Below are positions 4,025-64,000 of a stretch of 64,000 nucleotides of DNA, in pieces. Both the position numbers and the translations under genes were made by a program. The notes beneath the pieces are model-generated. The model searched no databases and was not told the origin of the DNA. It saw only the letters and a list, made by a program, of their open reading frames with translations. Within the stretch, counting starts at the first letter, position 1; the number at the start of each line of letters is the position of its first letter. Origin of the DNA: Candidatus Omnitrophota bacterium (lineage in GTDB: Bacteria; Omnitrophota; Gorgyraeia; Zapsychrales; Fredricksoniimonadaceae); contig JBGAJA010000002.1 in NCBI GenBank assembly GCA_044225175.1, positions 408,991 to 472,990 of the forward strand, given 5' to 3'.

Positions 4025-6547
4025 ATGCCCTATACTACAAACGATATTAAAGCAATTGAAGCCAAGTGGCAGAAATTCTGGGATGATCAGAAGACCTTTA
4101 AGGTTGAAGCGGATCCTTCTAAGAAGAAGTATTATGTCTTGGAAATGTTCCCATATCCCTCCGGCAAAATCCACATGGGCCATGTGCGCAATTACACAAT
4201 TGGCGATGTGATTGCCCGTTACAAAATGATGCAAGGTTTTAATGTACTACATCCCATTGGCTATGATGCCTTTGGACAACCCGCCGAAAACGCAGCAATC
4301 AAACACAAAACAAATCCCTCTGACTGGACATACAAATGCATTGAACAAATGCATGACGAATTAAAGAAGATGGGATTTTCTTATAACTGGGACCGTGAAT
4401 TCTCGACCTGTGATAGTGAATACTACAAATGGAATCAGTGGATTTTTATTAAGATGTATGAGAAGGGCTTAGCTTATAAGAAAGCTTCTTCCGTTAATTG
4501 GTGCCCTAGTTGTCAGACGACACTCGCCAATGAAGAAGTGATTGATGGGGCTTGTTGGCGGTGCAAAACAGTTGTGGATCAAAAAGATTTGGATCAATGG
4601 TATCTGAAGATCACTCAGTATGCTGAAAGCTTACTGGAAGATTTGAAACAGTTGGATCAATGGCCTTCACGTGTGCGTGCCATGCAAGAGAATTGGATTG
4701 GTAAAAGCTTTGGTGTGGAGATTTATTTCAAAATTGTAGGGGTGGGTTCCAAACCCACCCAACAAAAGGCAGGTTTAGAACCTGCCCCTACAGATGATGT
4801 AATCAAGGTTTTCACCACACGTCCGGATACTATCTTTGGTGCAACCTACGTCGTACTTGCCCCTGAACATCCCTTAGTTAAGAAATTGGTTAAAGGAACT
4901 CCTCAAGAAAAAGATGTTTTAGCATTTATCGAAAAGACGGCTAATAAAAGCAAGTCTATGCGTATGTCTGGTGGAGAACGTAAAGAAGGAATAGCTCTTG
5001 GGATTCATGCGATTAATCCAGTGAATGGAGAATCTATTCCAGTATTTATAGGGGACTATGTTCTCATGGATTATGGAACGGGTGCCATTATGGCAGTTCC
5101 AACACATGATCAGCGTGATTTCGAATTTGCCAACACGCATAAGCTTCCCATGCGCATTGTTATTCAGCATCCCAAAGAAGCCTTTACATTAGAAAGCATG
5201 TCTCAAGCCTATGAGGATCCAGGTGTTCTTGTGAATTCCAAGGAATTTGATGGCATTGGTAATGAAGAAGCTAAGAAGAAAATTGGCGAATGGATGACTC
5301 AAGAAAAAATGGGTAAGATCACTGTCCACTGGCGCTTGCGTGATTGGCTTATTTCTCGTCAGCGTTATTGGGGAACGCCCATTCCTATGATCTATTGTGA
5401 TAGTTGCGGGGTTGTACCTGTTCCTTATGAACAATTGCCCGTTGAATTGCCTAAGAATGTTGAGATTACAGGTCAGGGAGGCAGTCCATTAAATCGTGTG
5501 TCAGAATTCGTGAATGTGTCTTGTCCTAAATGCAAGAAAGCAGCCCGTCGTGAAACAGACACGATGGCCACATTCTTTGATTCTTCTTGGTATTTCTTAA
5601 GATTTTGCTCCGCACATAATGATAAAGAGGTGTTTAATAAGAATAATGCCAAGTATTGGATGACAGTTGATCAATACATTGGGGGGATTGAACATGCCAT
5701 TCTTCATTTGCTCTATTCTCGTTTCTTCACCAAGTTCTTTAAAGATTTAGGATTGATTGACTCAAGCGAACCTTTTAACCGTTTACTGACTCAAGGGATG
5801 GTGCTTAAAGATGGGGAGGTCATGTCTAAGTCTCGGGGCAATACGGTGGATCCAGATGAAGTCTTAAGCAAATATGGTGCAGATACACTTCGTTTGTTCA
5901 TTCTTTTTGCAGCTCCTCCAGAAGATCAACTGGAGTGGAATAGCGACGGGCTAGAAGGTTCTTGGAGGTTCTTGAATCGTGTGTATCAAATGGTTGAGAA
6001 ACGTTATGTGAAAGATGTAAAAGAAGAGGGTAAGGATCAGGTATTGGAACGAGCCCGTCATTCTGCCATCAAACAAATCACTCAATCGTTTGAAGAAGGA
6101 TATAAATTTAATACCGCTATCAGCCAGATGATGATTTTGGCAAATGCCATTGATAAATATAAGCCAGAATCCACGAGCACATTGAATCAAGCCATCGAAA
6201 CGCTCGTCTTATTATTAGGCCCTTTTGCGCCTCACATGTGCGAAGAGCTTTGGCAAATGATGTCCGCCAGAGGCGGATCCGCCTTTGGCGGAGGTCAAGA
6301 CTATTCTAGTATTAGCCGTGTTGCCTGGCCCAAATTCGATGAAGCAGCCCTTATCCAAGATGAAATCACATATGCCATTCAAATCAATGGTAAGGTCAGA
6401 AGCGAAGTCAAAGCCTCAGTCACAGCCACCCAAGAAGACTTGCAGAAGTTAGTCTTAGCCGATGCCAATGTCGCCCGCTATTTAGAGGGCGCCACCATCA
6501 AAAAATTCATTGTCGTCCCAAAGAAATTAGTTAGTATAGTCATTTAG
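4025..6547 (+). CDS. leuS: Leucyl-tRNA synthetase.
   Basis: HMGH motif (PSGKIHMGHVRNY), a KMSKS-like SKSRGN motif, 840 aa. The gene carries two in-frame palindromic insertions (4736-4791 and 6266-6299). Confidence 0.95.
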   Translation: MPYTTNDIKAIEAKWQKFWDDQKTFKVEADPSKKKYYVLEMFPYPSGKIHMGHVRNYTIGDVIARYKMMQGFNVLHPIGYDAFGQPAENAAIKHKTNPSDWTYKCIEQMHDELKKMGFSYNWDREFSTCDSEYYKWNQWIFIKMYEKGLAYKKASSVNWCPSCQTTLANEEVIDGACWRCKTVVDQKDLDQWYLKITQYAESLLEDLKQLDQWPSRVRAMQENWIGKSFGVEIYFKIVGVGSKPTQQKAGLEPAPTDDVIKVFTTRPDTIFGATYVVLAPEHPLVKKLVKGTPQEKDVLAFIEKTANKSKSMRMSGGERKEGIALGIHAINPVNGESIPVFIGDYVLMDYGTGAIMAVPTHDQRDFEFANTHKLPMRIVIQHPKEAFTLESMSQAYEDPGVLVNSKEFDGIGNEEAKKKIGEWMTQEKMGKITVHWRLRDWLISRQRYWGTPIPMIYCDSCGVVPVPYEQLPVELPKNVEITGQGGSPLNRVSEFVNVSCPKCKKAARRETDTMATFFDSSWYFLRFCSAHNDKEVFNKNNAKYWMTVDQYIGGIEHAILHLLYSRFFTKFFKDLGLIDSSEPFNRLLTQGMVLKDGEVMSKSRGNTVDPDEVLSKYGADTLRLFILFAAPPEDQLEWNSDGLEGSWRFLNRVYQMVEKRYVKDVKEEGKDQVLERARHSAIKQITQSFEEGYKFNTAISQMMILANAIDKYKPESTSTLNQAIETLVLLLGPFAPHMCEELWQMMSARGGSAFGGGQDYSSISRVAWPKFDEAALIQDEITYAIQINGKVRSEVKASVTATQEDLQKLVLADANVARYLEGATIKKFIVVPKKLVSIVI
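4736..4791. repeat. REP-like nested palindrome, family A, with outer stem GTAGGG...CCCTAC. It lies in frame inside leuS.
   Basis: The sequence is gtaggggtgggttccaaacccacccaacaaaaggcaggtttagaacctgcccctac. It contains two internal hairpins, GGTGGGTT/AACCCACC and GCAGGTTT/AACCTGC. Its translation within leuS is VGVGSKPTQQKAGLEPAPT. Confidence 0.85.
6266..6299. repeat. 22-bp perfect palindrome CCAGAGGCGGATCCGCCTTTGG plus flanks, family D. It lies in frame inside leuS.
   Basis: A nearly identical 34-nt stretch is found at 29555-29588 inside the second large secreted protein gene. Within leuS it translates as ARGGSAFGGGQ. Confidence 0.7.
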
Positions 6548-6619: not shown

Positions 6620-7171
6620 ATGTCTGAAAGAAAGCAATTACGGTTAAAGAATTATGAATATTCTGCGGCGGGGTATTATTTTGTGACGATTTGTGTTCAG
6701 GATCGTGTTCGTTTGTTTGGGGAAATAATAAATAATGAAATGATTTTAAACGAAACCGGAGAAATTCTAAAATTTACATGGTTTGATTTGGTAAATCATA
6801 ATGCAAATATTATATTGGATCATTTTGTGATCATGCCGAATCATATTCATGGAATTATACAAATCGTAGGGGCGGGTTCTGAACCCGCCTTTATGCCCAA
6901 TGGGGCAGGTTTGGAACCTGCCCCTACGACATTGGCAGAAATTGTTCGTCAATTTAAAACATTTTCATCAAAACGAATCAATAAATTATGCAATACGCCG
7001 GGCACAAAAATCTGGCAACGCAATTATTATGAACGTGTTATCAGAAATGAAAAAGAATTGAATAATATTCGACAATATATACAAGACAATCCTATAAATT
7101 GGGAATTTGATGAAAATTATTGTAGAGGTGGGTTCCAAACCCACCTTTTATGCGTAATAGGGCAGGTTTAG
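6620..7171 (+). mobile_element. REP-associated tyrosine transposase (RAYT, IS200/IS605-like TnpA_REP). It carries an internal REP insertion and a 3' end encoded by a REP.
   Basis: HuH motif (PNHIHGII) and the RAYT signature WQRNYYERVIRNE. A REP copy lies in frame between these two motifs, and another overlaps the last 16 codons. Confidence 0.85.
6866..6927. repeat. REP-like palindrome, family A, in frame inside the RAYT gene.
   Basis: The sequence is gtaggggcgggttctgaacccgcctttatgcccaatggggcaggtttggaacctgcccctac. It translates as VGAGSEPAFMPNGAGLEPAPT. Confidence 0.85.
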
Positions 7172-7184
7172 AACCTGCCCCTAC
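7122..7184. repeat. REP-like palindrome, family A, overlapping the RAYT 3' end and stop codon.
   Basis: The sequence is gtagaggtgggttccaaacccaccttttatgcgtaatagggcaggtttagaacctgcccctac. Confidence 0.85.
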
Positions 7185-7226
7185 GTAGATATTGTAAATA
7201 TTAATTGATTGGAATATACTGTCTTC

Positions 7227-8513
7227 ATGAAATTTTACGCTGACCTTCATATTCATTCCAAATACTCCCGTGCTACATCCAAAGATCTTGATTTAGAACA
7301 CCTTTACCTGTGGGCCCAATATAAGGGGATTCACGTCGTGGGGACAGGGGATTTTGTGCATCCGGCTTGGCTTAAAGAGATGGAAGAGAAGTTAGAGCCG
7401 GCTGAAGAAGGGTTATTTAAGCTTAAAGATCAATTTGCTAAAGAGATCGATAAAATTGTCCCAAAATCCTGCCAAATGCCCGTCCGATTTATGCTGACGG
7501 TTGAGATTTCTAATATTTATAAGAGGTTAGATAAGGTACGTAAGGTCCATAATTTGATTTGGGCGCCTTCGATTGAATCAGCTAAGAAGATTCAGGCCAA
7601 GCTTGGCAGCATTGGTAATATCAAATCCGACGGGCGACCTATTCTGGGCCTTGATTCTAAAGATCTGCTGGAAATTACACTCGAAGCAGATCCCAAAAAC
7701 ATCTTTGTTCCAGCCCATATCTGGACGCCTTGGTTTTCTGCACTTGGTTCAATGGGTGGCTTTGATCGTATGGAAGATTGCTTTGCAGATCTAACCAAGC
7801 ATATCTTTGCCGTTGAAACTGGTCTTTCATCAGATCCTTTGATGAATTGGCGGCTTAAGCAATTGGATTCATTTATTCTAGTCTCTAACTCTGATGCTCA
7901 TTCTCCTGGCAAATTAGGACGCGAGTGTAATGTATTTGATACAGAATTATCTTACCCTGCCATTTATAGTGCTTTATCCAATGAGAATGATAAGGGATTA
8001 GTGGGAACACTTGAGTTTTTTCCTGAAGAAGGAAAGTATCACTACGACGGACATCGTAATTGCCATGTGCGCTGGCATCCGAAACAAACAATTGAGAATC
8101 AGGGAATATGTACAGGTTGCGGGAAACCTGTCACTGTGGGCGTCATGGCTCGTGTCGAGCAATTAGCGGATAGACCCGAAGGACAAAAAGGCAAACGCCA
8201 TCGTCCTTATTGGAATTTAGTGACTTTACCGGAAGTCATTGCGGGAGCTAAAGGTGTTGGTTCCTCTAGTAAAGCCGTTCAAGCCGTGTATATGAATATG
8301 CTTAGCCAGATTGGCAATGAGTTCTATATCTTACTTGATGCTTCGATCGATGAAATTCGCTCTGTTGCAGGAGAGGTTATTGCAGAGGGAATTAGCCGCA
8401 TGCGAAAAGGTGATATTAAGATTGCAGCTGGATATGATGGTGAGTATGGAACGATTGAAATCTTCAAAGACGGCGAGCGCGATTTAATCGAAAAGCAATT
8501 GGCACTCTTCTAA
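7227..8513 (+). CDS. PHP-domain phosphoesterase/nuclease, EndoQ-like (TIGR00375-type). The ORF track starts at a TTG at 7209.
   Basis: N-terminal MKFYADLHIHSKYS PHP motif, additional His/Asp clusters, and a C-terminal CTGCGKP zinc-finger-like motif. The stop overlaps the start of the helicase gene (TAATG). Confidence 0.6.
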   Translation: MKFYADLHIHSKYSRATSKDLDLEHLYLWAQYKGIHVVGTGDFVHPAWLKEMEEKLEPAEEGLFKLKDQFAKEIDKIVPKSCQMPVRFMLTVEISNIYKRLDKVRKVHNLIWAPSIESAKKIQAKLGSIGNIKSDGRPILGLDSKDLLEITLEADPKNIFVPAHIWTPWFSALGSMGGFDRMEDCFADLTKHIFAVETGLSSDPLMNWRLKQLDSFILVSNSDAHSPGKLGRECNVFDTELSYPAIYSALSNENDKGLVGTLEFFPEEGKYHYDGHRNCHVRWHPKQTIENQGICTGCGKPVTVGVMARVEQLADRPEGQKGKRHRPYWNLVTLPEVIAGAKGVGSSSKAVQAVYMNMLSQIGNEFYILLDASIDEIRSVAGEVIAEGISRMRKGDIKIAAGYDGEYGTIEIFKDGERDLIEKQLALF

Positions 8514-10156
8514 TGAATTTCCCAAGACCAACAGATTTAAATGATGCACAGTGGAATGCCGTTTCCCACGATGATTCCCACCTTATGATCGTCGCAGGAC
8601 CAGGCACAGGAAAGACGCACACAATCACCTATCGTATTATTCGCACCATTCAAAAATTAAAACAAGATCAAAAGATCCTAGCGATCACATTTACCAATAA
8701 AGCAGCCAATCAGATGCGTGAGCGTTTGGAGGCAAAGATTCCCAATTATTGGAGACAGGTAAATGTAGGTACATTTCATCGTTTTGCTTTGAGTTTACTG
8801 CGGGAGTTTAGTCAGTACTTGCCTTTGCCAAAAGATTTTCAAATTGCTCTTCCTGAAGATATTCAGGAATGTCTAAGTGAGATTTTCCCTCAGAAAAGCC
8901 CCTTGCAGCGCAAAGAAACGCTGGAGGCAATATCTTGGATGAAATCCACTCAATTGGCTATTGATCCCTCCGAAGACTTCCAGAAATACCACCGCTTCTT
9001 AAGAGCCAAAGGTATGATTGATTTTGATGATATCTTACGAGAAGTTTTGATGCTTTTGGAGAATGAAGAGGTGTTACATAAGGTGCAAGGCAGATATCGT
9101 TACATCTTTGTGGACGAATATCAGGATGTGAATATTGTTCAGAATGCGTTGTTGAAATTGATTGTAGGGGTAACCCCCTGTGGTTGCCCTGAAGATAAGG
9201 GCAGGCACGGGGGCCTGCCCCTACTGACGGTTATCGGTGACCCTAATCAATCGATCTATGGCTTTCGTGGTTCTCAGGTGAAATTCTTTAATCGTTTCGA
9301 AGAAGATTTTCCAGGAGCTGCCAAGCTATACCTAAATGAGAATTATCGTTCAACAGCTAATCTTCTAACGGCCAGTTCTCAGGTCATCAATAAAGACCCT
9401 GGAGGCAAAGTTCCAGAGGCCATTGCCAAGATCTACGACGAGGGAAGACTTGTTATTCATGAAGCAGCAACTGACAGAGCAGAAGCTGAGTATGTGGCTC
9501 ATCAGATTGAACAATTGATTGGCGGAGTGAGCATGTTCTCTCAAGACTCCAATCGTGTTGAAACATATAGGCAGGCGCACCGTAGTTTTGGCGATATCGC
9601 TATTTTGTATCGCCTTAACACCCAAAAGAATGTATTGATTGAAGCGCTTGATCATTTAGGAATTCCTTATAGTGTGTCTTCTAAACCTAAGGTAGGGGCG
9701 GCTCTTGCAGACGCCCTTTTAGGGCAGGGGCAAGCCCTGCCCCTACAGACACAGGAACAGAAAGATGAACAGATATTAAATTGTTTCGAAGAATCCTTGG
9801 ACTACAAAGTAGAAAAGGTCTCTCTTTTAACATTACATGCTGCCAAAGGTTTGGAATTTCCTGTTGTTTTTATTGTCGGATGCGAAGCAAAGCTAATTCC
9901 CTTGGACATCAACGATCTTAAAGGCGACATCCAAGAAGAACGCCGGCTTTTTTATGTGGGGATGACACGAGCAAAAGAACATTTGTTTTTAACTAGAGCA
10001 GGACGGCGTCAAATCTTTGGAACCACGGTATTTAATCCACCCTCTATGTTTTTAGCTGACATTGAAGAAGACCTTAAAGCCTATGAGAATTCCAAGCTTC
10101 GCCGAAAATTATCTAAAAGCAAGGAAGCCGAGAAACAGCAGTTGAAATTGTTTTAG
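8513..10156 (+). CDS. Short UvrD/PcrA/Rep-family SF1 DNA helicase.
   Basis: Walker A (AGPGTGKTHT), motif II (FVDEYQD), motif III (VIGDPNQSIYGFRG), and a C-terminal segment LTLHAAKGLEFPVVF..FYVGMTRAK. It carries two in-frame REP insertions. Confidence 0.8.
   Translation: MNFPRPTDLNDAQWNAVSHDDSHLMIVAGPGTGKTHTITYRIIRTIQKLKQDQKILAITFTNKAANQMRERLEAKIPNYWRQVNVGTFHRFALSLLREFSQYLPLPKDFQIALPEDIQECLSEIFPQKSPLQRKETLEAISWMKSTQLAIDPSEDFQKYHRFLRAKGMIDFDDILREVLMLLENEEVLHKVQGRYRYIFVDEYQDVNIVQNALLKLIVGVTPCGCPEDKGRHGGLPLLTVIGDPNQSIYGFRGSQVKFFNRFEEDFPGAAKLYLNENYRSTANLLTASSQVINKDPGGKVPEAIAKIYDEGRLVIHEAATDRAEAEYVAHQIEQLIGGVSMFSQDSNRVETYRQAHRSFGDIAILYRLNTQKNVLIEALDHLGIPYSVSSKPKVGAALADALLGQGQALPLQTQEQKDEQILNCFEESLDYKVEKVSLLTLHAAKGLEFPVVFIVGCEAKLIPLDINDLKGDIQEERRLFYVGMTRAKEHLFLTRAGRRQIFGTTVFNPPSMFLADIEEDLKAYENSKLRRKLSKSKEAEKQQLKLF
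9164..9224. repeat. REP-like palindrome, family A variant, in frame inside the UvrD-like helicase.
   Basis: The sequence is gtaggggtaaccccctgtggttgccctgaagataagggcaggcacgggggcctgcccctac. It translates as VGVTPCGCPEDKGRHGGLPLL and lies immediately before motif III. Confidence 0.8.
9692..9746. repeat. REP-like palindrome, family A variant, in frame inside the UvrD-like helicase.
   Basis: The sequence is gtaggggcggctcttgcagacgcccttttagggcaggggcaagccctgcccctac. It translates as VGAALADALLGQGQALPLQ. Confidence 0.8.
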
Positions 10157-17938: not shown

Positions 17939-20900
17939 ATGAGAAAACAAACCACAATGACCTACATCAGCCGAAGGCTGATCAGCCTCTGGCTGACAGC
18001 TGCTTTTATAGTTGGCCCTTTGCCCAGGGCTCAGGCGCAAGATTTTACCTTACCTAAGCCTGGTGTCATGGTGCATCTAAGCCCTGAATTTACACCTGCT
18101 CATTTACAGGGCATGACCATTCATCCTGGTAATGCCTTACAATTCGATTTCTTAATTCACAAAGGCGATAAGAATTTACAAGCAGATCAGAAGAAAGAAG
18201 AATATAAGAAACTGATCAAGTATTTCCTCGCTTCTTTGACCATTCCTGATGAAGATCAATGGGTGAACCTTTCTCCCTATGAGAAGGATCGGATCATTAA
18301 GGATGATTTTGGTAAGACTGAGATGGGCCGAGATCTTTTAGCTCAGGATTATCTATTAAAACAAATTACCTCTAGCCTCATTTATCCCGAAGATAGTTTA
18401 GGACAGAAGTTCTGGGACAAGATCTATGAACGTGCCTGGAAGGAATATCATACGACCAATATCCCAGTGAATACGTTTAATAAGGTCTGGATTGTTCCGG
18501 ATGAAGCGATTGTGTATGAGAGTGGCAATAGCGCTTACATTCTCAAAAGTCATTTGAAGGTCATGCTAGAGGAAGATTATTTGTCATTAGAAAAGCATTC
18601 TGGTGTCATGGCGAACCACAAAGGGGTGAAGCAATTTTTTAAATCTGAAAAGATTGCCCCGTCGCCTTCGGCTCCTCGCAATGACACAAGTTCTCTTGGT
18701 TCGCAGGTAGTCCGCGAAATTGTACTTCCTGCTCTTGAGAAGGAAGTTAATGAAGGGGAGAATTTTTCTAATCTTCGTCAAATGTACAGCGGGATGGTTC
18801 TGGCGACATGGTACAAGAAAGCCCTTAAAGAATCTTTACTGGGAAAGTTTTATACTGATAAAGCCAAGGTCAAAGGAGTTAATCAGGATCCACAAAATAA
18901 TCAAGCCATTTACCAACAGTATCTCAAAGCTTTCAAGAAGGGCTGTTTTAATTATATCAAAGAAGATGTAGACAAATACACCAAGGAATCGGTTCCTAGA
19001 AAATATTTCTCCGGCGGTTTTCACCGCCCTATGTTCAGAAATGGATCCGAAGTAACCTTTATCCCTGCAGGGAAGTTGAATAGAACCTTAGCGATGGCAG
19101 CTATAGTTTCATCGCAAGAATCTCTAGAGCAGGCCACTGTTGCGTTTAATGCAGCAGGAGAGATAAGGAACAGTGCTCAATCGGCAGGCGATCAGGCGAT
19201 GATGGAAAATCCTCCGAAAGACTCCAATGCGGGAAGAGAAACATTAACCTTAGAAGCTTTGGAGAGAATTATGAGCTCCTATATCCAATCGAATGAAAAA
19301 TCGATCTATGGGTTTATTCAAACTTTGATACATAGCGTAGGAGGGGAAGCAAACATAACTGCGGATCCTAAAGGAATCGAACAAGGCGCTACAATTAGCT
19401 TTGCTTTTAGTTTTCGCAGAAATATTGAGTTATCAGGCAAAACATATAGTGCCCTTGAAGTGTCAACATTTATCCTAACCGAACTTGAAAGAAAGCTTAA
19501 TGAAGAATATGGCCGCAACTATAAAGTTGAAAGCCATATCATAGACAACCACGAGAGAGAATTGCATGATGACAGGAATTTTCAACTTGTGGTTGATATC
19601 GATAGAAGAACATTTGAAAAGGCGAAAATGCGCTATAAACAATTAATGTCCTTTTCGGATATTCTTAGTCGAATTGATGAAATACCCAGAACAGCACGCC
19701 CTAATATTTTATTTATGGTGCCTAGAGACGGCAACAGCCCAATTTATTTGATGCTTCAAAATACCGGACGATACATATTCTTTGACCATGTCACTGCCTT
19801 TAGTGTATTTAATGAAGAGCTTTATTATTCTTATTTGGATCCACAGGAACAAGGCAATGTAATTTTTGTTTGTTTGAATGCAAAAGGTGTTATTAGGCAA
19901 TTAAGACCAAATGAGGTCCCAAAGAGCCTCAGAGAAGAATTTGGTATACAAGAATCTGATTTGATGGATTTAAATGGTAATTATAAGGCCAGTTTTATTA
20001 TTGGCGGGTTCAATGATAATAATGTAATTGATTCCTTAACTCAGCTAAAAGGCGTCAAAATGGAAGATGTTGAGAATAAGATGAAAGAAACTTCACAAAC
20101 AGATGCAAAATCGATTAAGGATTTATTAAAAGATCAAAACACAAAGGTAACAAAGAGAGGATTTACACATCAAGAAATAGCTGAAGCGCTTTTTATAGCT
20201 ATGCAAAATATACCTGGAAAATATTTTAAAATTGCCAACTATGATTTCTTAATTGAAAAATCAACAAGTGATTCAAATAAAGATCCTGTATTCATAAACC
20301 CCAACAATTTTCTATCGCCAGACGCACGAAAAGTCCAATATACGCTAAGGAACATCTCATTGGATAGATCAATTACATTTTTTGCATCAACTGCTTACGA
20401 TATTGCGAATTTTGGTTTTTACGGGGACCTTGATCCATTAAATATGATCGAAGTATTAGGATTAAAACCTGTGGGAAGAGATACTGGCTCTTCTGAGGAT
20501 CAGCCAAATATTATCGATGGTAAAGCTCGAATCAATCCTGATGCAAGGATGCCAGATATTAAGAAAAAGATGCGAGCAAGTAACGAAGAGTTAGAGCGAT
20601 ATCATGCTGGGATTACAGCGGCATTAACGGCCGTAGTGAAGATTAATTTAGGCAAAGATGATATAGGAGAGACAAAAATTATTAATTTTGGATCAACATC
20701 AAGAGATACGCACATCGATAATTTTTCTAATGAAGGTTTAGATATTGATTATCTTATTCAATTTAGTACTGAAGATGAGTTGAAGCTGTTTAGACGAAAC
20801 CTGAAAACATTCGGTTTTTCTGCTGCAAAGGTTATTTTTCAAGATAAAGGTTTTGAATTTGCGCAGGGACAGAGAGGTTTGACTCCTGAAGGTCAATATT

Positions 20901-21661
20901 TACAGTCGTTTTATGTTAGAGAAAAGGGTCAAAAGATATGGATTCTATTGCATGTAAAATTTGCAGTAACGAAAAAAGATTTAATTTATATAGATTGGTT
21001 TGACCGGCAAATGACTCAAATTGAAAATTTAGGAGAAAGCCGTGAACAAATTGCCAGAGAAATTCGTAAGATGAAAAGCGTTATTCAAGATATGCGAAAG
21101 GGAAAAACTTATAAGCGTCGTGCTATTTCTATTGCCTTTGAGCAATTGGTTATTCAATCAGCGGGTGCTTCAGATTATGGGCGCACAATATTAGGAGTTG
21201 GAAGTTTTCAAAAGGCCATCGATCGAGTTTATGAGGCAGGTTATGATAAGCTAAATAAACGTGTAATCCCTCTTCAAGAAGTTCAAGATACTTTTCAAAT
21301 TTTTGATCCGGAGAAGAGAACTAATTATATAGCTACTTTTACAGTTCAGGAATGGAATGATTTAGTCAATTTAGTTATAAAAATTAAAGAAACACCAGAT
21401 TTTCTTAAGGAGATTATCGTAGGCAACCCAGGGAACTTGACAGATTCAAACAAAGCGATGACAGCAAAAGGTGGTGTTGACTTTAACTCTGCGAATTTGA
21501 ATTTACAAATCAAGCGTGATGGCCGTGGGGTGCCGCTGCCTTTAGCCCAGCAGGATATGGCCCAACTAAACGCCATTGAAGGTTTTGAAGTTAATATCTT
21601 GGAAATTAAACCTGCTGTTAATGTTTCCATCATTTCTGAATTAAAAACCATTGCAAAATAA
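17939..21661 (+). CDS. Large secreted modular protein, paralog 1 (1240 aa). It has a conserved N-terminal domain, a putative pol-beta-like nucleotidyltransferase motif in the middle region, and a conserved C-terminal domain.
   Basis: Signal peptide. The N-terminal roughly 330 aa and C-terminal roughly 90 aa are homologous to the 26711 and 63512 ORFs (KLIKYFLASLTIP..WVNLSPYEKDRI). A GS..(15)..DID motif lies near 20690-20749. Confidence 0.6.
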   Translation: MRKQTTMTYISRRLISLWLTAAFIVGPLPRAQAQDFTLPKPGVMVHLSPEFTPAHLQGMTIHPGNALQFDFLIHKGDKNLQADQKKEEYKKLIKYFLASLTIPDEDQWVNLSPYEKDRIIKDDFGKTEMGRDLLAQDYLLKQITSSLIYPEDSLGQKFWDKIYERAWKEYHTTNIPVNTFNKVWIVPDEAIVYESGNSAYILKSHLKVMLEEDYLSLEKHSGVMANHKGVKQFFKSEKIAPSPSAPRNDTSSLGSQVVREIVLPALEKEVNEGENFSNLRQMYSGMVLATWYKKALKESLLGKFYTDKAKVKGVNQDPQNNQAIYQQYLKAFKKGCFNYIKEDVDKYTKESVPRKYFSGGFHRPMFRNGSEVTFIPAGKLNRTLAMAAIVSSQESLEQATVAFNAAGEIRNSAQSAGDQAMMENPPKDSNAGRETLTLEALERIMSSYIQSNEKSIYGFIQTLIHSVGGEANITADPKGIEQGATISFAFSFRRNIELSGKTYSALEVSTFILTELERKLNEEYGRNYKVESHIIDNHERELHDDRNFQLVVDIDRRTFEKAKMRYKQLMSFSDILSRIDEIPRTARPNILFMVPRDGNSPIYLMLQNTGRYIFFDHVTAFSVFNEELYYSYLDPQEQGNVIFVCLNAKGVIRQLRPNEVPKSLREEFGIQESDLMDLNGNYKASFIIGGFNDNNVIDSLTQLKGVKMEDVENKMKETSQTDAKSIKDLLKDQNTKVTKRGFTHQEIAEALFIAMQNIPGKYFKIANYDFLIEKSTSDSNKDPVFINPNNFLSPDARKVQYTLRNISLDRSITFFASTAYDIANFGFYGDLDPLNMIEVLGLKPVGRDTGSSEDQPNIIDGKARINPDARMPDIKKKMRASNEELERYHAGITAALTAVVKINLGKDDIGETKIINFGSTSRDTHIDNFSNEGLDIDYLIQFSTEDELKLFRRNLKTFGFSAAKVIFQDKGFEFAQGQRGLTPEGQYLQSFYVREKGQKIWILLHVKFAVTKKDLIYIDWFDRQMTQIENLGESREQIAREIRKMKSVIQDMRKGKTYKRRAISIAFEQLVIQSAGASDYGRTILGVGSFQKAIDRVYEAGYDKLNKRVIPLQEVQDTFQIFDPEKRTNYIATFTVQEWNDLVNLVIKIKETPDFLKEIIVGNPGNLTDSNKAMTAKGGVDFNSANLNLQIKRDGRGVPLPLAQQDMAQLNAIEGFEVNILEIKPAVNVSIISELKTIAK
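18603..18687. repeat. Degenerate family B palindrome, in frame inside the paralog-1 gene.
   Basis: The sequence is gtgtcatggcgaacc...gaagattgccccgtcgccttcggctcctcgcaatgacac. It translates as SGVMANHKGVKQFFKSEKIAPSPSAPRNDTSS and lies exactly in a segment that is hypervariable between paralogs. Confidence 0.7.
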
Positions 21662-25114: not shown

Positions 25115-25173
25115 GTAGGGGCGGCCCCCTGTGGCCGCCCTTAATAAGGGCCGGCACAGGGGCCTGCCCCTAC
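25115..25173. repeat. REP-like palindrome, family A variant, in the dnaK-dnaJ intergenic region.
   Basis: The sequence is gtaggggcggccccctgtggccgcccttaataagggccggcacaggggcctgcccctac. Confidence 0.8.
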
Positions 25174-26710: not shown

Positions 26711-29700
26711 TTGTTTCAACGCGGGACATCATTAGGTGTACTTCTAGCTTTCTGTCTATCCTTGATTGCTCCTTATCAAACGGTTTGGGCTAAAGATGCG
26801 GGATTGATTTTGCCGAAACCCGGGGCAATGGTTAATTTAAGCCCTGCTTTTGAGCCTGTGATGATGAAGGGATTGAAGGTTGATCCGAAGAATCCGTTTC
26901 GGTTTGAATTCATTTTGGATCCAGGTGACGTAGGGGTGGGTTCTAAAACCATCCCTACGGATTTGAAAATCGAATCCACCAAATTAATCAAATATTTCCT
27001 CGCCTCTTTAACCATCCCCGAAAAAGACCTTTGGGTCAATTTATCTCCTTATGAAAAAGATCGAATGATTCCTTCCACCTTGGCCCAGACTGAGATGGGA
27101 CGTGATATGTTGTCCCAGGATTACATCCTCAAACAGCTAACAGCCTCTTTGATCTATCCTGAGAAAGAACTGGGAAAGGCGTTCTGGGATAAGGTCTATT
27201 CCAAAGCTCAAGCAATCTACGGAAGCACCCAGATTCCAGTGAACACCTTTAACAAGGTTTGGATTGTCGCAGACAAGGCAGATGTATTTGAGAGGGGAAA
27301 TGTAGCGTATGTGGTGGGGGCACATTTGAAGGTGATGCTAGAAGAAGACTATTTAGCGAATTCGAAAAATCAATTGCCAGCCAGGGGACATGTTCCGGAC
27401 AAAACCAACAGGAACGTGTCCCCCAGCACTTTGCCAAGCCATGTCGGGTTGGAAATGAAAGCAACCCAGGGACAATCACCAAACGTATTAGGAAACCAAA
27501 TCATCCGCGAAATTGTCCTTCCTGCTCTCGAACAAGAAATCAACACCGGCAAGCATTTCGCCCTCTTACGCCAGATGTTTTATTCCATGATCCTAGCCAG
27601 TTGGTACAAAATGGCGCTCAAGGATGCACTCATTTCTAAAATTTACGGCAATCAAAGTAAGGTCAAGGTGGGCATTAACCAGAAAGATATTAAAACCAAC
27701 GACGAAATCTTCAATCAATACCTGAAAGCTTACAAGAAGGGAGTGTTTAATTACATCAAGGAAGACATTTCCGCCATAGGCGGAACCGCCTCTGGCGGAG
27801 ATCACACTCGTCAACAACGTATCCCTAGGAAATATTTTTCAGGTGGAGAGCACGTTTGGCAATACCTAGATCATGCTCGGGTGGTCCATATGATCCCTAG
27901 AGGAACAAGTTTTGCAAATCAAGCCATGATTGCAGTGGTGGATATGACGCCTAAATCTAAAAATTCCGCCATGGCTTCAAAATTGACCCCTAATCAAATC
28001 ATCAATTTATTTAATCAAAAGTTTCCAGATAAGCATAAGCAGATTGCAGGGCTTCCTATTGCTGATGTTCAAAGCATAATAAATCCTACTACACAAAGAG
28101 CGTTTTATAGGGACTTTAAGAATAGAACAGAAAGAGATGGGATAGTGTTTAGCCGTTCCGCGACTAATCCTGTTTTTCTTAACAACTATATTAATCATAT
28201 TATGAAATTTGTTAAACCAGGTCAGAAAATTCTGTGTGTGGGAGAAGGCAGGGGCCATGTGGCTGCGGAATTAAAGAAAAGAGGGATAGATGTTTATGCC
28301 ATTGATCTGAGTGAGGAAAATACTGTTATTTCAAAAAGAAAAGGTGTTAACCAAATGGTTGGAGATGCCAGGGATTTACTTAAGCTGTACGGTCCAGAAA
28401 ATTTTGATATTGTGCTTTTTAGCGAATCCATAGGAGCAATGCCTATGGAGGACGTTTTAAAACAGGCCCATCTTGTGTTAAAACAAGGCGGAAATCTTCT
28501 GATCGGCGCTTATCCATCAACAGAAGAACGGGTGAAGATATCTCATCGGAGTAAATTCGTATATTATTCCACCCTTGAAATTAATGAAGCCCTCACTAAA
28601 GCTAAGTTTTCACATTTTCATCATGAACCCGTTTATGAAAATCCTGTCAATTTCTTTGATCTAGATGAAATGCCTGCAACATATCTTAATTTATTCGTAG
28701 CAACTAAACCACAAACAATGGATCTGCAATCCAGACAGGATCGTGCGATGGGAGTTCTTCAAGAAGATATTTCAAGGGAATTCTTATTGCTTCAAAGAAA
28801 AGTTCAGGAGTTACTTCAATATATTTTAATTGATGAAAATTGGGCAACATCACAACCAGTTACCTCAGAAATTTTTGAGGGGTTAGATTTAGATGCAAAC
28901 AGTCTTTTGAATGATTTAAGGACAAATGGTTATCTGAATGCAGCTAATGTCATGACAACAAAGCTTCAGGATCTTGAGTTTTCTTCCTTAATGCAATTTA
29001 CAAACCCCGTTTTTTCAGCCAAGAAATATGAGATTCACCAGAGAATTAAGAAGTTAAGACCGCTTATGGACTTTCGCGATATCACCCATCATGCTTTAAC
29101 AGGCCTTCTTTATTTTATGCTGATTTTAAGTACGGAAGACCTTCAAATCCTAGAAAAATTCAAAACAGACGAATTGGATGATATTGCGCATCTTTTATCG
29201 GGTTTGGGGGCTTCTTTAGGAAACCTTAATCAATATGAGATTCCAGGTGAATTAAGTACCAAGGATTTTATGTTTGCAACTCAATTGGGTAGGGTCGTGG
29301 GGGGGGTGCAACGAGCTTTGAAGGATCGAGTCTTTTTAGAAGAACATCAACAAGCAATCGCAGAAGTTGTCCAAAGGATTGAATTGATAAGCGAGCAAAC
29401 TAATCAAATCATTAAGCAAATCAGAGACCAGGCCATGAGTAATACCCCAGTTGATTCCACCAAACGTACAACACCAGGAGGTATTGACTTTGATCGCTCT
29501 AAAATGCAAATGAATGTGTCTAAAGAAGGCCAGGGAGTTCAAATGGATGCTCCAGCCAGAGGCAGGTCCGCCTTTGGCGGAGATCAAGCTATGATCGAAC
29601 GCATTCAGCGGGAGGGTTTTGATGGTTTAGAGTTTACTATTCGATCTCTTGAACCAGTGAAAGATTTGGAGTTGTTTTTGGGACTAAAAGAAAAGCCCCT

Positions 29701-29722
29701 AAGTCTTGCCGTTGCAAAATAA
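26711..29722 (+). CDS. Large secreted modular protein, paralog 2 (1003 aa), with a class I SAM-dependent methyltransferase module.
   Basis: Signal peptide. The N- and C-terminal domains are shared with paralog 1. A KILCVGEGRGHVAAE...IDLSE...GDARDL..FDIVLF Rossmann methyltransferase motif lies near 28226-28450. Confidence 0.6.
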   Translation: MFQRGTSLGVLLAFCLSLIAPYQTVWAKDAGLILPKPGAMVNLSPAFEPVMMKGLKVDPKNPFRFEFILDPGDVGVGSKTIPTDLKIESTKLIKYFLASLTIPEKDLWVNLSPYEKDRMIPSTLAQTEMGRDMLSQDYILKQLTASLIYPEKELGKAFWDKVYSKAQAIYGSTQIPVNTFNKVWIVADKADVFERGNVAYVVGAHLKVMLEEDYLANSKNQLPARGHVPDKTNRNVSPSTLPSHVGLEMKATQGQSPNVLGNQIIREIVLPALEQEINTGKHFALLRQMFYSMILASWYKMALKDALISKIYGNQSKVKVGINQKDIKTNDEIFNQYLKAYKKGVFNYIKEDISAIGGTASGGDHTRQQRIPRKYFSGGEHVWQYLDHARVVHMIPRGTSFANQAMIAVVDMTPKSKNSAMASKLTPNQIINLFNQKFPDKHKQIAGLPIADVQSIINPTTQRAFYRDFKNRTERDGIVFSRSATNPVFLNNYINHIMKFVKPGQKILCVGEGRGHVAAELKKRGIDVYAIDLSEENTVISKRKGVNQMVGDARDLLKLYGPENFDIVLFSESIGAMPMEDVLKQAHLVLKQGGNLLIGAYPSTEERVKISHRSKFVYYSTLEINEALTKAKFSHFHHEPVYENPVNFFDLDEMPATYLNLFVATKPQTMDLQSRQDRAMGVLQEDISREFLLLQRKVQELLQYILIDENWATSQPVTSEIFEGLDLDANSLLNDLRTNGYLNAANVMTTKLQDLEFSSLMQFTNPVFSAKKYEIHQRIKKLRPLMDFRDITHHALTGLLYFMLILSTEDLQILEKFKTDELDDIAHLLSGLGASLGNLNQYEIPGELSTKDFMFATQLGRVVGGVQRALKDRVFLEEHQQAIAEVVQRIELISEQTNQIIKQIRDQAMSNTPVDSTKRTTPGGIDFDRSKMQMNVSKEGQGVQMDAPARGRSAFGGDQAMIERIQREGFDGLEFTIRSLEPVKDLELFLGLKEKPLSLAVAK
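27384..27424. repeat. Hairpin GGGGACATGTTCC-(15)-GGAACGTGTCCCC, in frame at the hypervariable site of paralog 2.
   Basis: A 13-bp inverted repeat with one mismatch. It occupies the same variable segment where paralog 1 carries the family-B element. Confidence 0.55.
29555..29588. repeat. Family D palindrome copy (CCAGAGGCAGGTCCGCCTTTGG), in frame in paralog 2.
   Basis: About 32 of 34 nt identical to 6266-6299 in leuS. It translates as ARGRSAFGGDQ. Confidence 0.7.
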
Positions 29723-48193: not shown

Positions 48194-48925
48194 ATGAAGA
48201 CCCTAAAAGATACAGATGTGGTGATTCTAGCAGGAGGTTTGGGTAAAAGGCTTCAGTCTGTGACGGGCGGTTCACAGAAGATCCTTGCTCAGATTGATGG
48301 TAAACCTTTTATTAGCATCTTAATTGACTATCTTGCAGCCCAAGGTGCTTCGCGCTTTATCTTATGCACTGGCCATGATGCAAAGAATGTTGAAGAGACG
48401 TTAGCTAATGCCCACAGAGGACTCACTGTTTTATTTTCCAGAGAAGATGAACCTTTGGGTACGGGGGGAGCAATTAAAAAAGGGGCAGGCTTAGTTGAAA
48501 GCGACTTATTTCTGGCTATGAATGGAGATTGTTTTTGTGTGATTGATTATAATCGTATGATTCAAGAGCATCAAATGAACAAAGCCCAAGCCACTATTGC
48601 AATAACACAAATTGCAGATGCTCGAGAATATGGAACAATTGAAATTAATTCGAATAAAGAAATTATTACTTTTAAAGAAAAACAACCAATCTTGCAAAAA
48701 GCTTTGATCAACACTGGTACATATTGTTTGAATCGAAATATATTTAATGTAGGGGTGGGTTCTAAACCCACCCAAGGAAAATTTTCCATCGAATACGATT
48801 TTTTCCCTTATTTGGTTGGGAAAGGTTTTTTTGGGTTTGAAGTAGAAAATAAATTTATAGACATCGGTACGCCTGAGAGATATCAATGGGCGCAACAACA
48901 TTTAGCAGGATTAAATGGAAAATAA
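48194..48925 (+). CDS. hddC: Sugar-1-phosphate nucleotidyltransferase, D-glycero-alpha-D-manno-heptose 1-phosphate guanylyltransferase (HddC)-like.
   Basis: N-terminal VVILAGGLGKRL. The gene carries a half REP (48749-48773) in frame. Confidence 0.65.
   Translation: MKTLKDTDVVILAGGLGKRLQSVTGGSQKILAQIDGKPFISILIDYLAAQGASRFILCTGHDAKNVEETLANAHRGLTVLFSREDEPLGTGGAIKKGAGLVESDLFLAMNGDCFCVIDYNRMIQEHQMNKAQATIAITQIADAREYGTIEINSNKEIITFKEKQPILQKALINTGTYCLNRNIFNVGVGSKPTQGKFSIEYDFFPYLVGKGFFGFEVENKFIDIGTPERYQWAQQHLAGLNGK
48749..48773. repeat. Partial family-A REP (first hairpin only), in frame in the hddC-like gene.
   Basis: The sequence is gtaggggtgggttctaaacccaccc. It translates as VGVGSKPTQ, the same peptide as the leuS insertion. 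Confidence 0.7.
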
Positions 48926-62521: not shown

Positions 62522-63445
62522 ATGAATATTGTATTTTTTGGCAGTGATGATTTTGCAGGGGAGTGTTTGAAAGAGATCTTGAAGAGTTCTCATATGGTGG
62601 TGGGGTGTGTTACCCAGCCGGATGCTCGTCAGGGTAGGGGGATGAATTTGACTTTTTCTCCTATCAAAGAGCTTGCTCTTGAGCATGATTTGATTTGTAT
62701 TCAGCCGGAATCATTAAAAGGCCAGGCAGTCATTGATGCCTTAAAGTTTTTTAATGCTGATGTATTTGTGGTTGTGGCTTACGGCAAAATACTTTCCCAA
62801 GCTGTTTTAGATATCCCTAAGCTTTTATGTGTTAATGTGCATGGATCTTTGCTTCCTAAGTATCGCGGTGCAGCACCTATCAATTGGGCCATTATTAATG
62901 GGGACAAAGAAACAGGTGTGACGATCATGAAGATGAATGCTCAAATGGATGCGGGAGATATTATTGCCCAAGAAGTGATGCCTTTAGACGAAAGCACGAC
63001 AGCAGATGTATTGAGGCCAGAAATGGCAAAAGTAGGGGCCAAGCTTCTGGTTAAAACTTTAGGTAATATTGCGTCGGGAAATTACACGTGTGAGTCTCAA
63101 AACGAAGCCCATGTGACGATCGCCCACAAGTTAACCAAAGAAATGGGACGTATTGACTGGAATCAACCCGCAGCCACAATTGAACGCCAGATCCGAGGGC
63201 TTAAGCCATGGCCAGGGACATTTTGTTCATTTAAAAATAAGACCCTTAAAATTCTGCAGGCGAGTGTTGTTTCAGAGACTGGAGAACCAGGCATGATTCT
63301 TGGAACCAGCAAAGATGGCTTTACCATTGCCTGCGGTAAAGATGCTCTCTTAATTAAAGAAGTCCATTTGGAAGCCTCCAAACCTACCTCAGCCTATAGT
63401 TTCACACAAGGCCACCGTTTAGTTTTAGGTCAAAAATTACTCTAA
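62522..63445 (+). CDS. fmt: Methionyl-tRNA formyltransferase.
   Basis: IVFFGSDDFA N-terminus, the HGSLLPKYRGAAPI formyltransferase motif, and the C-terminal Fmt domain. Confidence 0.9.
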   Translation: MNIVFFGSDDFAGECLKEILKSSHMVVGCVTQPDARQGRGMNLTFSPIKELALEHDLICIQPESLKGQAVIDALKFFNADVFVVVAYGKILSQAVLDIPKLLCVNVHGSLLPKYRGAAPINWAIINGDKETGVTIMKMNAQMDAGDIIAQEVMPLDESTTADVLRPEMAKVGAKLLVKTLGNIASGNYTCESQNEAHVTIAHKLTKEMGRIDWNQPAATIERQIRGLKPWPGTFCSFKNKTLKILQASVVSETGEPGMILGTSKDGFTIACGKDALLIKEVHLEASKPTSAYSFTQGHRLVLGQKLL

Positions 63446-63450
63446 AAGCT

Positions 63451-63479
63451 GTCAAAAAGGTGTCTGACACCTTTTTGAC
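63451..63479. terminator. Bidirectional rho-independent terminator hairpin.
   Basis: Perfect 14-bp inverted repeat GTCAAAAAGGTGTC-t-GACACCTTTTTGAC. An A-tract and a T-tract flank a GC core. It lies right after the fmt stop. Confidence 0.6.
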
Positions 63480-63511
63480 AATTATATATATACATGGCAT
63501 ACTTTTGCCAT

Positions 63512-64000
63512 CCTATGTTTAAACGTCTTATTGCCTCTATTGTCTGTCTTTGCTTTATTTCTTCAACTGTTCACGTTTCCTATGCCCAGACAGGTTTTAA
63601 ACCTGTCTCTACGTTAAATTTGCCAGAACCAGGCACTATGGTAGGCCCCTCAGTACCTTTTACACCTTTGTCCTTAAAAGGCCTAGTAATTAACCCTAAA
63701 AAGCCTTTGGAATTTCAATTCATTGTGGATACGGGTACAAATCATACCCCTCCAGATATTCAATCCGAATCCACCAAATTAATCAAATACTTCCTAGCCG
63801 GCCTAACGATTCCTGAAGGAGACCTGTGGGTGAATTTAAGCCCCTATGAGAAGGAACGAATCACCCCCCAAGCCTTAGGCCAGACCGAGTTAGGGCGAGA
63901 TTTGCTGGCGCAAGACTATATCTTAAAGCAGTTAACTGCCTCTTTGATCTATCCTGAGCGTGACCTAGGTAAGGAGTTCTGGAGCCGGGTGTATCAACAG
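63512..64000 (+). CDS. Large secreted modular protein, paralog 3 (N-terminal fragment only; it continues past the window).
   Basis: Signal peptide and the conserved N-terminal domain, including KLIKYFLAGLTIPEGDLWVNLSPYEKERI...LLAQDYILKQLTASLIYPE. Confidence 0.6.

Follow-up and report, generated by a model that had tools for sequence, protein, structure and literature searches.

A 30-nt segment of leuS, the leucyl-tRNA synthetase (LeuRS) gene in the 64-kb window analysed here (the whole stretch of 64,000 nucleotides taken from contig JBGAJA010000002.1 of a Candidatus Omnitrophota bacterium), is very probably a copy of a dispersed, insertion-derived mini-element, which we refer to as the double-hairpin element (DHE). 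A sequence-only reading of the window had claimed that 34 nt of leuS are shared, in frame and almost unchanged, with a second and unrelated gene, and that this likeness resides in the DNA. Positions 6266-6299, inside the open reading frame (ORF) 4025..6547, indeed read GCCAGAGGCGGATCCGCCTTTGGCGGAGGTCAAG, and the second site at 29555-29588 matches at 31 of the 34 nt, with both sites in frame and translated as ARGGSAFGGGQ in leuS and ARGRSAFGGDQ in ORF 26711..29722. Two matches to the 34-mer with three or fewer mismatches are present in the window, compared to 0.00 in 100 shuffles, and the core 12-mer also gives two matches, compared to 0.02 in shuffles. As shuffled windows give no 34-mer matches at this threshold, chance is excluded as the source of the shared stretch. 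No longer protein domain common to the two proteins was found, with their similarity ending at the element, and the clean insertion described below, together with the same DNA in hundreds of unrelated contexts that include non-coding and tRNA-like DNA, bears out an element at the DNA level, not protein homology. Two details of the earlier description required revision. The 22-mer CCAGAGGCGGATCCGCCTTTGG, taken for a perfect palindrome, is symmetric at 20 of 22 positions with one G.T position, and neither 22 nor 34 nt is the length of the natural unit, which is the 30-nt block at 6263-6292, exactly the part that is missing in an orthologue, and the last 7 nt of the 34-nt span (GGTCAAG) are native leuS.

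The DHE consists of two abutting 15-nt stem-loops, in both of which a GC-rich stem of 6 bp is closed by a loop of 3 nt, in the arrangement TCCGCC-NRA-GGCGGA/TCCGCC-TYN-GGCGGA. The sequence-only reading had placed the element in two genes; both stand, but its reach is wider, with a third copy at 27770-27799, a fourth at 17967-17996 and copies in many genomes. All four window copies share the general layout X6-n3-X6'/X6-n3-X6' with a spacer of zero. Copy 1 (6263-6292, TCCGCCAGAGGCGGATCCGCCTTTGGCGGA, with units TCCGCC-AGA-GGCGGA/TCCGCC-TTT-GGCGGA) is symmetric at 28 of 30 positions and is read in phase 0 as SARGGSAFGG within leuS, whose forward-strand ORF (4025..6547, 840 aa; Pfam tRNA-synt_1, editing domain and Anticodon_1) is intact despite the insertion and has a 100% match on an NCBI Omnitrophota contig. 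Copies 2 and 3 lie in the forward-strand ORF 26711..29722 (1003 aa), which belongs to an Omnitrophota family and has a methyltransferase cargo and a C-terminal GGIDF domain. Copy 2 (27770-27799, TCCGCC-ATA-GGCGGA/ACCGCC-TCT-GGCGGA) encodes SAIGGTASGG in the N-terminal domain, and copy 3 (29552-29581, CCAGCC-AGA-GGCAGG/TCCGCC-TTT-GGCGGA), the copy previously matched to leuS, encodes PARGRSAFGG in the C-terminal domain and is a heterodimer whose first hairpin is partly decayed. Copy 4 (17967-17996, TCAGCC-GAA-GGCTGA/TCAGCC-TCT-GGCTGA) is read in phase 1 as ISRRLISLWL in the forward-strand ORF 17939..21661 (1240 aa), a paralogue of the ORF 26711..29722 family, and shows a co-ordinated change from C:G to A:T across all four arms. 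These four GC-rich copies, in a window with a GC content of 39%, compare to 0-0.05 in shuffles, and no solo hairpin of DHE type was found in the 64-kb window.

Comparison with relatives of the host genes shows where the copies begin and end. Among the 120 closest homologues of the window LeuRS (66-81% identity, annotated as Omnitrophota or Omnitrophica where named), the sequence SARGGSAFGG between "LWQMM" and "GK/GQ" occurs in the window protein alone (1 of 120); the absence from orthologues that the earlier proposal had anticipated is thus seen in 119 of 120 homologues and in solved LeuRS structures (PDB), which have a 10-residue gap at this site, between the anticodon-binding domain and the C-terminal domain. 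A syntenic relative (L120, GCA_964583975.1) has an empty leuS site reading ATG ATG^GGC AAA, where the window reads ATG ATG, the 30 nt, then GGT CAA, and downstream of the insert ten codons follow in both up to GCC TGG. As this empty-site alignment leaves a 30-nt gap, the leuS insert is exactly 6263-6292 and is without target-site duplication. Copy 2 is a 10-aa insertion missing in the other 69 family members with a printed alignment, and copy 3 is missing in most of the homologues shown. The copy 3 site is filled in a homologue from the L120 genome (P0194, locus L126) by CCAGCC-AGA-GGCTGG/TCCGCC-TTT-GGCGGA, an intact version of the same heterodimer, in another (P0122, locus L127) by a canonical DHE translated as SAKGGSASGG, and in P0158 possibly by a half unit (FGG). 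These paralogue sites are also filled without target-site duplication.

A second LeuRS loop, at about residue 237, is an insertion hot spot. It comprises only three residues in 110 of 119 homologues and holds a canonical DHE (SAKGGSASGG) in P0007, a half unit in P0005, other repeats in the close orthologues P0002-P0004 and, in the window itself at 4735-4794, an in-frame doublet of the GTAG type of repetitive extragenic palindrome (REP) that encodes VGVGSKPTQQKAGLEPAPT. Occupancy thus differs among close orthologues and among sites, which is what a mobile or recently mobile element would be expected to show. The LeuRS linker at the DHE site is insertion-tolerant: in the Omnitrophota homologues P0015, P0090, P0094 and P0113, the very loop that holds the DHE (aligned to window 6262/6293) is lengthened by 6-23 aa of unrelated sequence, for example RPVDVGRETSDVKRPASKPGHKA.

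The long palindromic symmetry, previously noted in the shared stretch, is not the conserved feature of the DHE; the two small hairpins are. Energy minimisation of the window copies favours one long hairpin with a 13-bp stem (-30.4 kcal/mol as RNA, z -6.9), but comparison among copies rejects this form as the conserved feature, because compensation tracks the small hairpins and no correlation exists between the two loops. The test for compensation used elements gathered by mismatch count alone, regardless of pairing. Where such an element has two arm substitutions, the changes compensate each other inside a small hairpin in 29 cases, across the long hairpin in 1 case and not at all in 2. The arm types CCCGCT/AGCGGG, CCCTCC/GGAGGG, CCAGCC/GGCTGG, TCTGCC/GGCAGA and TTAGCC/GGCTAA all keep small-hairpin pairing, and heterodimers with two different arm types exist. 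The loops follow the consensus NRA in the first hairpin and TYN in the second, with 19 exactly complementary pairs compared to 15.6 +/- 3.6 in shuffled pairs, i.e. no excess. In the mRNA sense, the commonest combination of loops (27 of 62) would leave the long hairpin with an A.C mismatch, which argues against selection for a long hairpin in mRNA. The conservation of the small hairpins points to recognition of the DHE in folded form, either as single-stranded nucleic acid or as an extruded cruciform, although the arms could also be kept complementary by intramolecular template-switch correction.

Within genes, the DHE is found in a strongly preferred reading phase. Stop-free frames of at least 150 codons contain 77 of 126 canonical copies, compared to 83% of random positions, and 62 of these 77 are in phase 0, which encodes SAxGGSAxGG, as are 46 of the 53 copies in frames of at least 300 codons. 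The same phase-0 peptide results from either strand because the DHE is palindromic. The TCAGCC variant, which has TGA in phase 0, is found in ORFs more rarely than the canonical type (34 of 122), with 26 copies in phase 2 (QPxADQPxAE) and 8 in phase 1 (SRRLISLxL). As the phase used tracks how well the peptide would be tolerated, this pattern argues for selection after insertion and not for a phase-aware mechanism. In the case of copy 4, the residues ISRRLISLWL lie in the predicted signal peptide of ORF 17939..21661 (window 17939-18030), and in other copies from metagenomes this phase gives FSRRLISLWLI and LSRRLISLRLK; copy 4 may have been co-opted as the signal-peptide core of this protein.

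The insertion sites share a loose flanking signature, with a consensus of TTT-DHE-AAA in which the three bases to the left are T-rich and the three to the right A-rich. A T stands at position -2 in 80-85% of copies, mirrored by an A at the right, whether the copies are coding or not. As the flanks in P0122 and L126 are native codons (F on the left, N or D on the right), the bias reflects a target preference and is not part of the element; the leuS site, ATG^GGC, fits it only in part. The pentamer G-R-T-C-A stands directly 3' of all three canonical window copies (6293-6297, 27800-27804 and 29582-29586), is native sequence in leuS and may represent a lineage-specific target preference or coincidence.

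A scan of one genome per GTDB species (596 Gb) for the exact canonical pattern CCGCCNNNGGCGGANCCGCCNNNGGCGG, which has 21 specified bases and an estimated chance expectation below one (about 0.3), placed the canonical arms at 119 loci or more, and a metagenome scan placed the variant arms of copy 4 (CAGCC...GGCTG) at 120 loci or more. The hosts include Patescibacteria of many classes, Omnitrophota, Kiritimatiellae, Planctomycetota, Verrucomicrobiota, Lentisphaerae, Ignavibacteria, Chloroflexota and others, and the matches include megabase contigs and one single-cell genome. Sequence beyond the 30 nt is unrelated among loci, apart from the T-rich and A-rich bias. Viral contigs gave only 5 matches and the 72,556 plasmids searched gave none, and a phage or plasmid vector was rejected on these counts. 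No relevant Rfam family matched within window positions 4000-31000, the core 12-mer matches only cloning primers in the literature, and no description of the DHE was found in the open-access literature searched on palindromic repeats of Omnitrophota or of candidate phyla radiation (CPR) bacteria. In a metagenome-assembled genome of Kiritimatiellae (L008, 4560-4790 and 6380-6610), and partly in one of Verrucomicrobia, the DHE forms the 5' part of a conserved repeat of ~190 nt, laid out as cataggaatttt, the DHE and acaatccgtctttgttgtcattccgagcgtag within longer flanks (L008; also L072, L003 and L039).

The best lead to an enzyme comes from genes for a small GIY-YIG nuclease that recur next to DHEs. 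In locus L139, an 81-aa GIY-YIG ORF is bracketed by DHEs (4917-5280), and searches with tblastn yielded 19 such ORFs in 17 loci, 10 of which have a DHE at a distance of 10-67 nt, nearly always directly upstream of the start. The ORFs are about 80 aa long, and Pfam assigns them the GIY-YIG domain only, i.e. a bare catalytic domain. They belong to a recurring module that consists of a tRNA 5' fragment split by one or two DHEs, the GIY-YIG ORF, and an intact copy of the same tRNA that overlaps the ORF stop; the tRNAs involved are those for Asn, His, Asp, Ser, Met and Val, and the modules are located at L139 4917-5280, at L216 382-708, and around positions 1300-2000 of L248, L249, L251, L255 and L261. 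In order to obtain an unbiased sample, six GIY-YIG clusters from a protein search were chosen for contig size, regardless of DHEs, and five of the six contain the same module. One of these clusters is from an Omnitrophica genome and carries the DHE CCAGCC-GAA-GGCTGG/TCCGCC-TTT-GGCGGA, the same subtype as window copy 3. A tRNA 3' fragment can take the place of the 5' fragment. In the module, the first bases of the intact tRNA supply the last codons and the stop of the ORF; in L216 and L251, the unit of fragment and DHE is present in tandem repeats.

DHEs lie in tRNA-like DNA in 44 of 268 cases, where deletion of the DHE restores the tRNA alignment, with hot spots near tRNA nucleotides 13-14, 17-18, 28 and 56-57. 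Of the pure TCCGCC homodimers, the type found in leuS, only 2 of 93 lie in tRNA-like DNA. A general association with tRNA genes was rejected, with 16 of 245 DHEs within 400 nt of a predicted tRNA, and tRNA targeting is therefore a feature of some DHE subtypes and not of the whole family. The association is strong, yet mobilisation of the DHE by the GIY-YIG nuclease is a tentative proposal that we consider less likely than not, and the GIY-YIG units flanked by DHEs in L139 and L216 are possible autonomous relatives of the element.

Taken together, these observations are best explained by a DHE that enters DNA precisely and without target-site duplication, preferring junctions between T-rich and A-rich sequence. 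An insert of 30 nt, a multiple of three, keeps the downstream frame, and in phase 0 encodes the flexible linker SAxGGSAxGG, such that copies survive in surface loops of proteins, even those of an essential LeuRS. The insertions, the make-up of the family, the conserved small hairpins, the filter on phase and the broad distribution are all seen directly in the data. Spread of the DHE would probably depend on a structure-recognising enzyme that acts in trans, with the hairpins presented either in single-stranded DNA or in an extruded cruciform; the stand-alone GIY-YIG nuclease of ~80 aa, with genes flanked by DHE-interrupted tRNA fragments, is the best candidate, and host repair or recombination would presumably complete the integration. 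We consider it possible, if doubtful, that the DHE is the cis cassette of an unrecognised mobility system, in which the GIY-YIG protein recognises the double hairpin or cruciform, cuts T-rich/A-rich or tRNA-loop sites and spreads both itself and the cassette. Under such an arrangement the nuclease would seed its own spread into tRNA genes, restoring the tRNA, as well as that of 30-nt cassettes into genes across Patescibacteria, Omnitrophota and other phyla.

Several points weigh against the interpretation of the DHE as an inserted mobile element or against its mechanistic extension. Recent mobility is deduced from comparisons at ~80% amino-acid identity, and the loci were gathered by exact patterns, which makes the family statistics ascertainment-biased. 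A host function or intramolecular template-switch correction, and not a need of mobility, could lie behind the compensated changes in the arms. Selfish repeats tend toward lineage specificity; near-identical 30-mers over many phyla are unusual for them, and a vector was not found among the viral contigs and plasmids. Neither a GIY-YIG gene nor a tRNA gene is present in the 64-kb window. To our knowledge, GIY-YIG nucleases cut DNA without strand transfer, so that the integration step is missing from the model.

A first alternative, which we regard as unlikely, is that the DHE is a REP, or a mobile doublet of REPs (REPIN), mobilised by the REP-associated tyrosine transposase (RAYT) encoded directly downstream of leuS on the forward strand (6620-7171). 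This gene is a genuine RAYT-like gene of the Y1 HUH class (Pfam Y1_Tnp, with the HUH motif NHIHGI and the tyrosine motif RNYYERVIR) that begins 70 nt past leuS; hairpin repeats are abundant in the window, some of them in frame within genes; and the DHE resembles a zero-spacer REP dimer, intragenic REP dimers being known (PMC3733652). The repeat that flanks the window RAYT and interrupts it in frame is, however, a different one, with GTAGGGG followed by a 9-bp hairpin, whereas DHEs have no GTAG or CGTC tag and a flank consensus of TTT/AAA, with a few loops that read GTA by chance. A tblastn search over the first 127 fetched loci (L001-L127; 868,676 nt) found one RAYT homologue, which is not flanked by DHEs. 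The RAYT was rejected as the mobiliser of the DHE on the basis of these differing flanking repeats and the single homologue in 127 loci.

A second alternative, which we judge quite improbable, holds that the DHE is a host-beneficial signal, such as a DNA-uptake-like tag, a recombination or nuclease site or an RNA motif, kept by selection and not by selfish spread. Compensatory changes do maintain the hairpins, and the DHE reads alike on both strands, so that every transcript carries the same double hairpin. A reading-frame bias within genes is also known for uptake sequences, and CPR and Omnitrophota hosts are thought to depend on DNA uptake. Uptake sequences would be expected to accumulate by mutation and recombination, but DHE copies are clean 30-nt insertions and not products of point-mutation drift, their occupancy varies among close orthologues and sites, and some, such as the copy at 29552, are decaying. 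A host signal also sits poorly with the A.C mismatch that is the most common state of the long hairpin in the mRNA sense (27 of 62) and with the lack of an Rfam family match.

Convergence at the protein level, by independent selection for a linker rich in Gly, Ser and Ala (SAxGG) in exposed loops, has very little probability: the peptide is a plausible flexible linker, and the copies lie in variable loops where homologues also carry insertions, but the copies repeat the same codons, TCC GCC ... GGC GGA, which are GC-rich against the 39% GC of the window, the palindromic layout and arm covariation have no protein-level explanation, the same DNA also lies in tRNA-like DNA, and the copies that are non-coding or out of phase effectively refute this reading. 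An artefact of assembly or sequencing, or ectopic gene conversion involving leuS and the paralogue, can be all but dismissed, since, even though nearly all matches are from metagenome-assembled genomes, the loops differ among copies, the copies keep reading frame, the matches come from many independent studies and assemblers and include megabase contigs and the single-cell genome, and the similarity between leuS and the paralogue stops within 4 nt of the DHE, those nucleotides being native leuS.

If this interpretation of the DHE holds, the dispersed repeats of bacteria gain a member that is very small, at 30 nt, and has a very wide distribution; if the nuclease also mobilises it, the combination of nuclease and hairpin would form an element unlike the known classes of bacterial transposon. 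It would also mean that repeated in-frame invasion, even of essential genes like leuS, is tolerated in genomes thought to be streamlined, such as those of CPR bacteria and Omnitrophota. The hairpin cassette, the minimal GIY-YIG nuclease and the tRNA genes make a concrete pairing to test. For annotation, the peptides SAxGGSAxGG and QPxADQPxAE, together with the spurious ORFs to which they give rise, are a hazard in metagenomic proteins, and they also mark insertion-tolerant loops.

Other repeats and genes of the window were recorded alongside the DHE. The window RAYT, which is missing in the syntenic relative L120, carries an in-frame REP doublet of the GTAGGGG-hairpin type in its own coding sequence (6868-6927; VGAGSEPAFMPNGAGLEPAPT) and is followed by another doublet (7121-7187). 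More hairpins of the GTAGGGG/CCCCTAC type are located at 9195-9224, 9723-9749, 25144-25173 (in the dnaK-dnaJ spacer), 48748-48780 and 63589-63615. The first two lie within a UvrD-like helicase ORF (8513..10156), where they read ...GRHGGLPLL... and ...GQGQALPLQ..., and Di Nocera et al. 2013 (PMC3733652) also noted REPs within genes for repair. In locus L088 (755-784), a 30-nt double hairpin with the different arms CCACCC-TAC-GGGTGG/CCACCC-GTA-GGGTGG spells GTAGGGTGG in its loops and stems, a hint that REPs of the GTAG type and the double-hairpin layout may be structurally connected. At 63450-63480, just past ORF 62522..63445, lies an AT-rich inverted repeat with perfect arms of 14 bp, TGTCAAAAAGGTGT-CTG-ACACCTTTTTGACA, which is unrelated to the GC-rich families. 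The ORFs at 17939-21661, 26711-29722 and ~63733 onward are members of a large Omnitrophota-specific protein family, with 4,814 proteins at E <= 1e-10 in a protein search with 8,000 scored candidates. In this family the N-terminal domain (~400 aa, LPxPGxMVxLSPxFxP...) is conserved, the C-terminus is formed by a GGIDxN...FDGLEF domain, and the middle holds a highly variable "cargo", which is a methyltransferase in the window and PFK, enolase-like proteins, response regulators and others in homologues.

Among known systems, REPs and REPINs share with the DHE their GC-rich stem-loop units in inverted pairs, sometimes only 1-2 bp apart, as well as stem sub-families with complementary residues and heterodimers (PMC3733652). 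Intragenic REP dimers occur in ORFs that include tRNA synthetase genes, where they add short peptide inserts (PMC3733652). The DHE shows the inverted dimers and the complementary stem changes of a REP but neither the GTAG or CGTC tag nor a RAYT flanked by the same repeats, and it further differs in its 15-nt unit, its zero spacer, the absence of a RAYT association, a near-identical sequence across many phyla and copies that are mostly intragenic and not extragenic. Compared to miniature inverted-repeat transposable elements, the DHE lacks the target-site duplication, both at leuS and at the paralogue sites, is itself an inverted repeat, and no parent insertion sequence was found. Palindrome-associated elements derived from IS200/IS605 have sub-terminal hairpins, cause no duplication and insert 3' of a fixed tetra- or pentanucleotide; the DHE has hairpins and no duplication, but its target shows only a loose T-rich bias, 30 nt is too short for guide sequences, and no link to TnpA was seen in the 127 loci.

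Rickettsia palindromic elements resemble the DHE in being palindromic selfish repeats that are translated in frame in unrelated, often essential genes (PMC10969869). In-frame insertion is common to both; in contrast, the Rickettsia elements are ~100-150 bp long, encode a longer conserved peptide and are confined to Rickettsia, whereas the DHE is 30 nt long and crosses phyla. GIY-YIG genes at structured-RNA genes have been described for T4 SegB in a tRNA cluster and for rRNA insertions in CPR bacteria (PMC2330249, PMC11270868). In these cases, as in the DHE modules, a small GIY-YIG gene sits in or beside a gene for tRNA or rRNA, and the host phyla are the same. Known GIY-YIG homing endonucleases, for which no dispersed 30-nt hairpin cassette is reported, have a DNA-binding domain, whereas the proteins described here consist of the catalytic domain alone.

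Finally, the closest likeness of form is to mitochondrial elements, namely the double-hairpin elements of Allomyces, the var1/GC42 clusters of yeast and the PstI palindromes of Neurospora, all G+C-rich islands in A+T-rich genomes (PMC2800124, PMC4478555). These elements comprise two stem-loops, are sporadic, are believed to be mobile, and are located in variable regions of rRNA and sometimes in protein genes; those of Allomyces have no flanking duplications, the yeast clusters have AG/ACT target duplications, and the Neurospora palindromes flank tRNA genes (PMC2800124, PMC4478555). The DHE has the same form, i.e. a G+C-rich element of two stem-loops in an A+T-rich genome without duplication, and this is a resemblance of form only, as the mitochondrial elements are organellar, longer (26-86 nt) and without sequence similarity to it. 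No bacterial counterpart of these elements was found in the literature searched. The DHE would offer a parallel in bacteria to the GC clusters and double-hairpin elements of mitochondria, which have long lacked an explanation. In total, the DHE behaves like intragenic REP dimers, Rickettsia palindromic elements or mitochondrial double-hairpin elements without belonging to any of these families; it forms a family of its own within a known kind of element, with a surprisingly broad distribution and a candidate partner nuclease.

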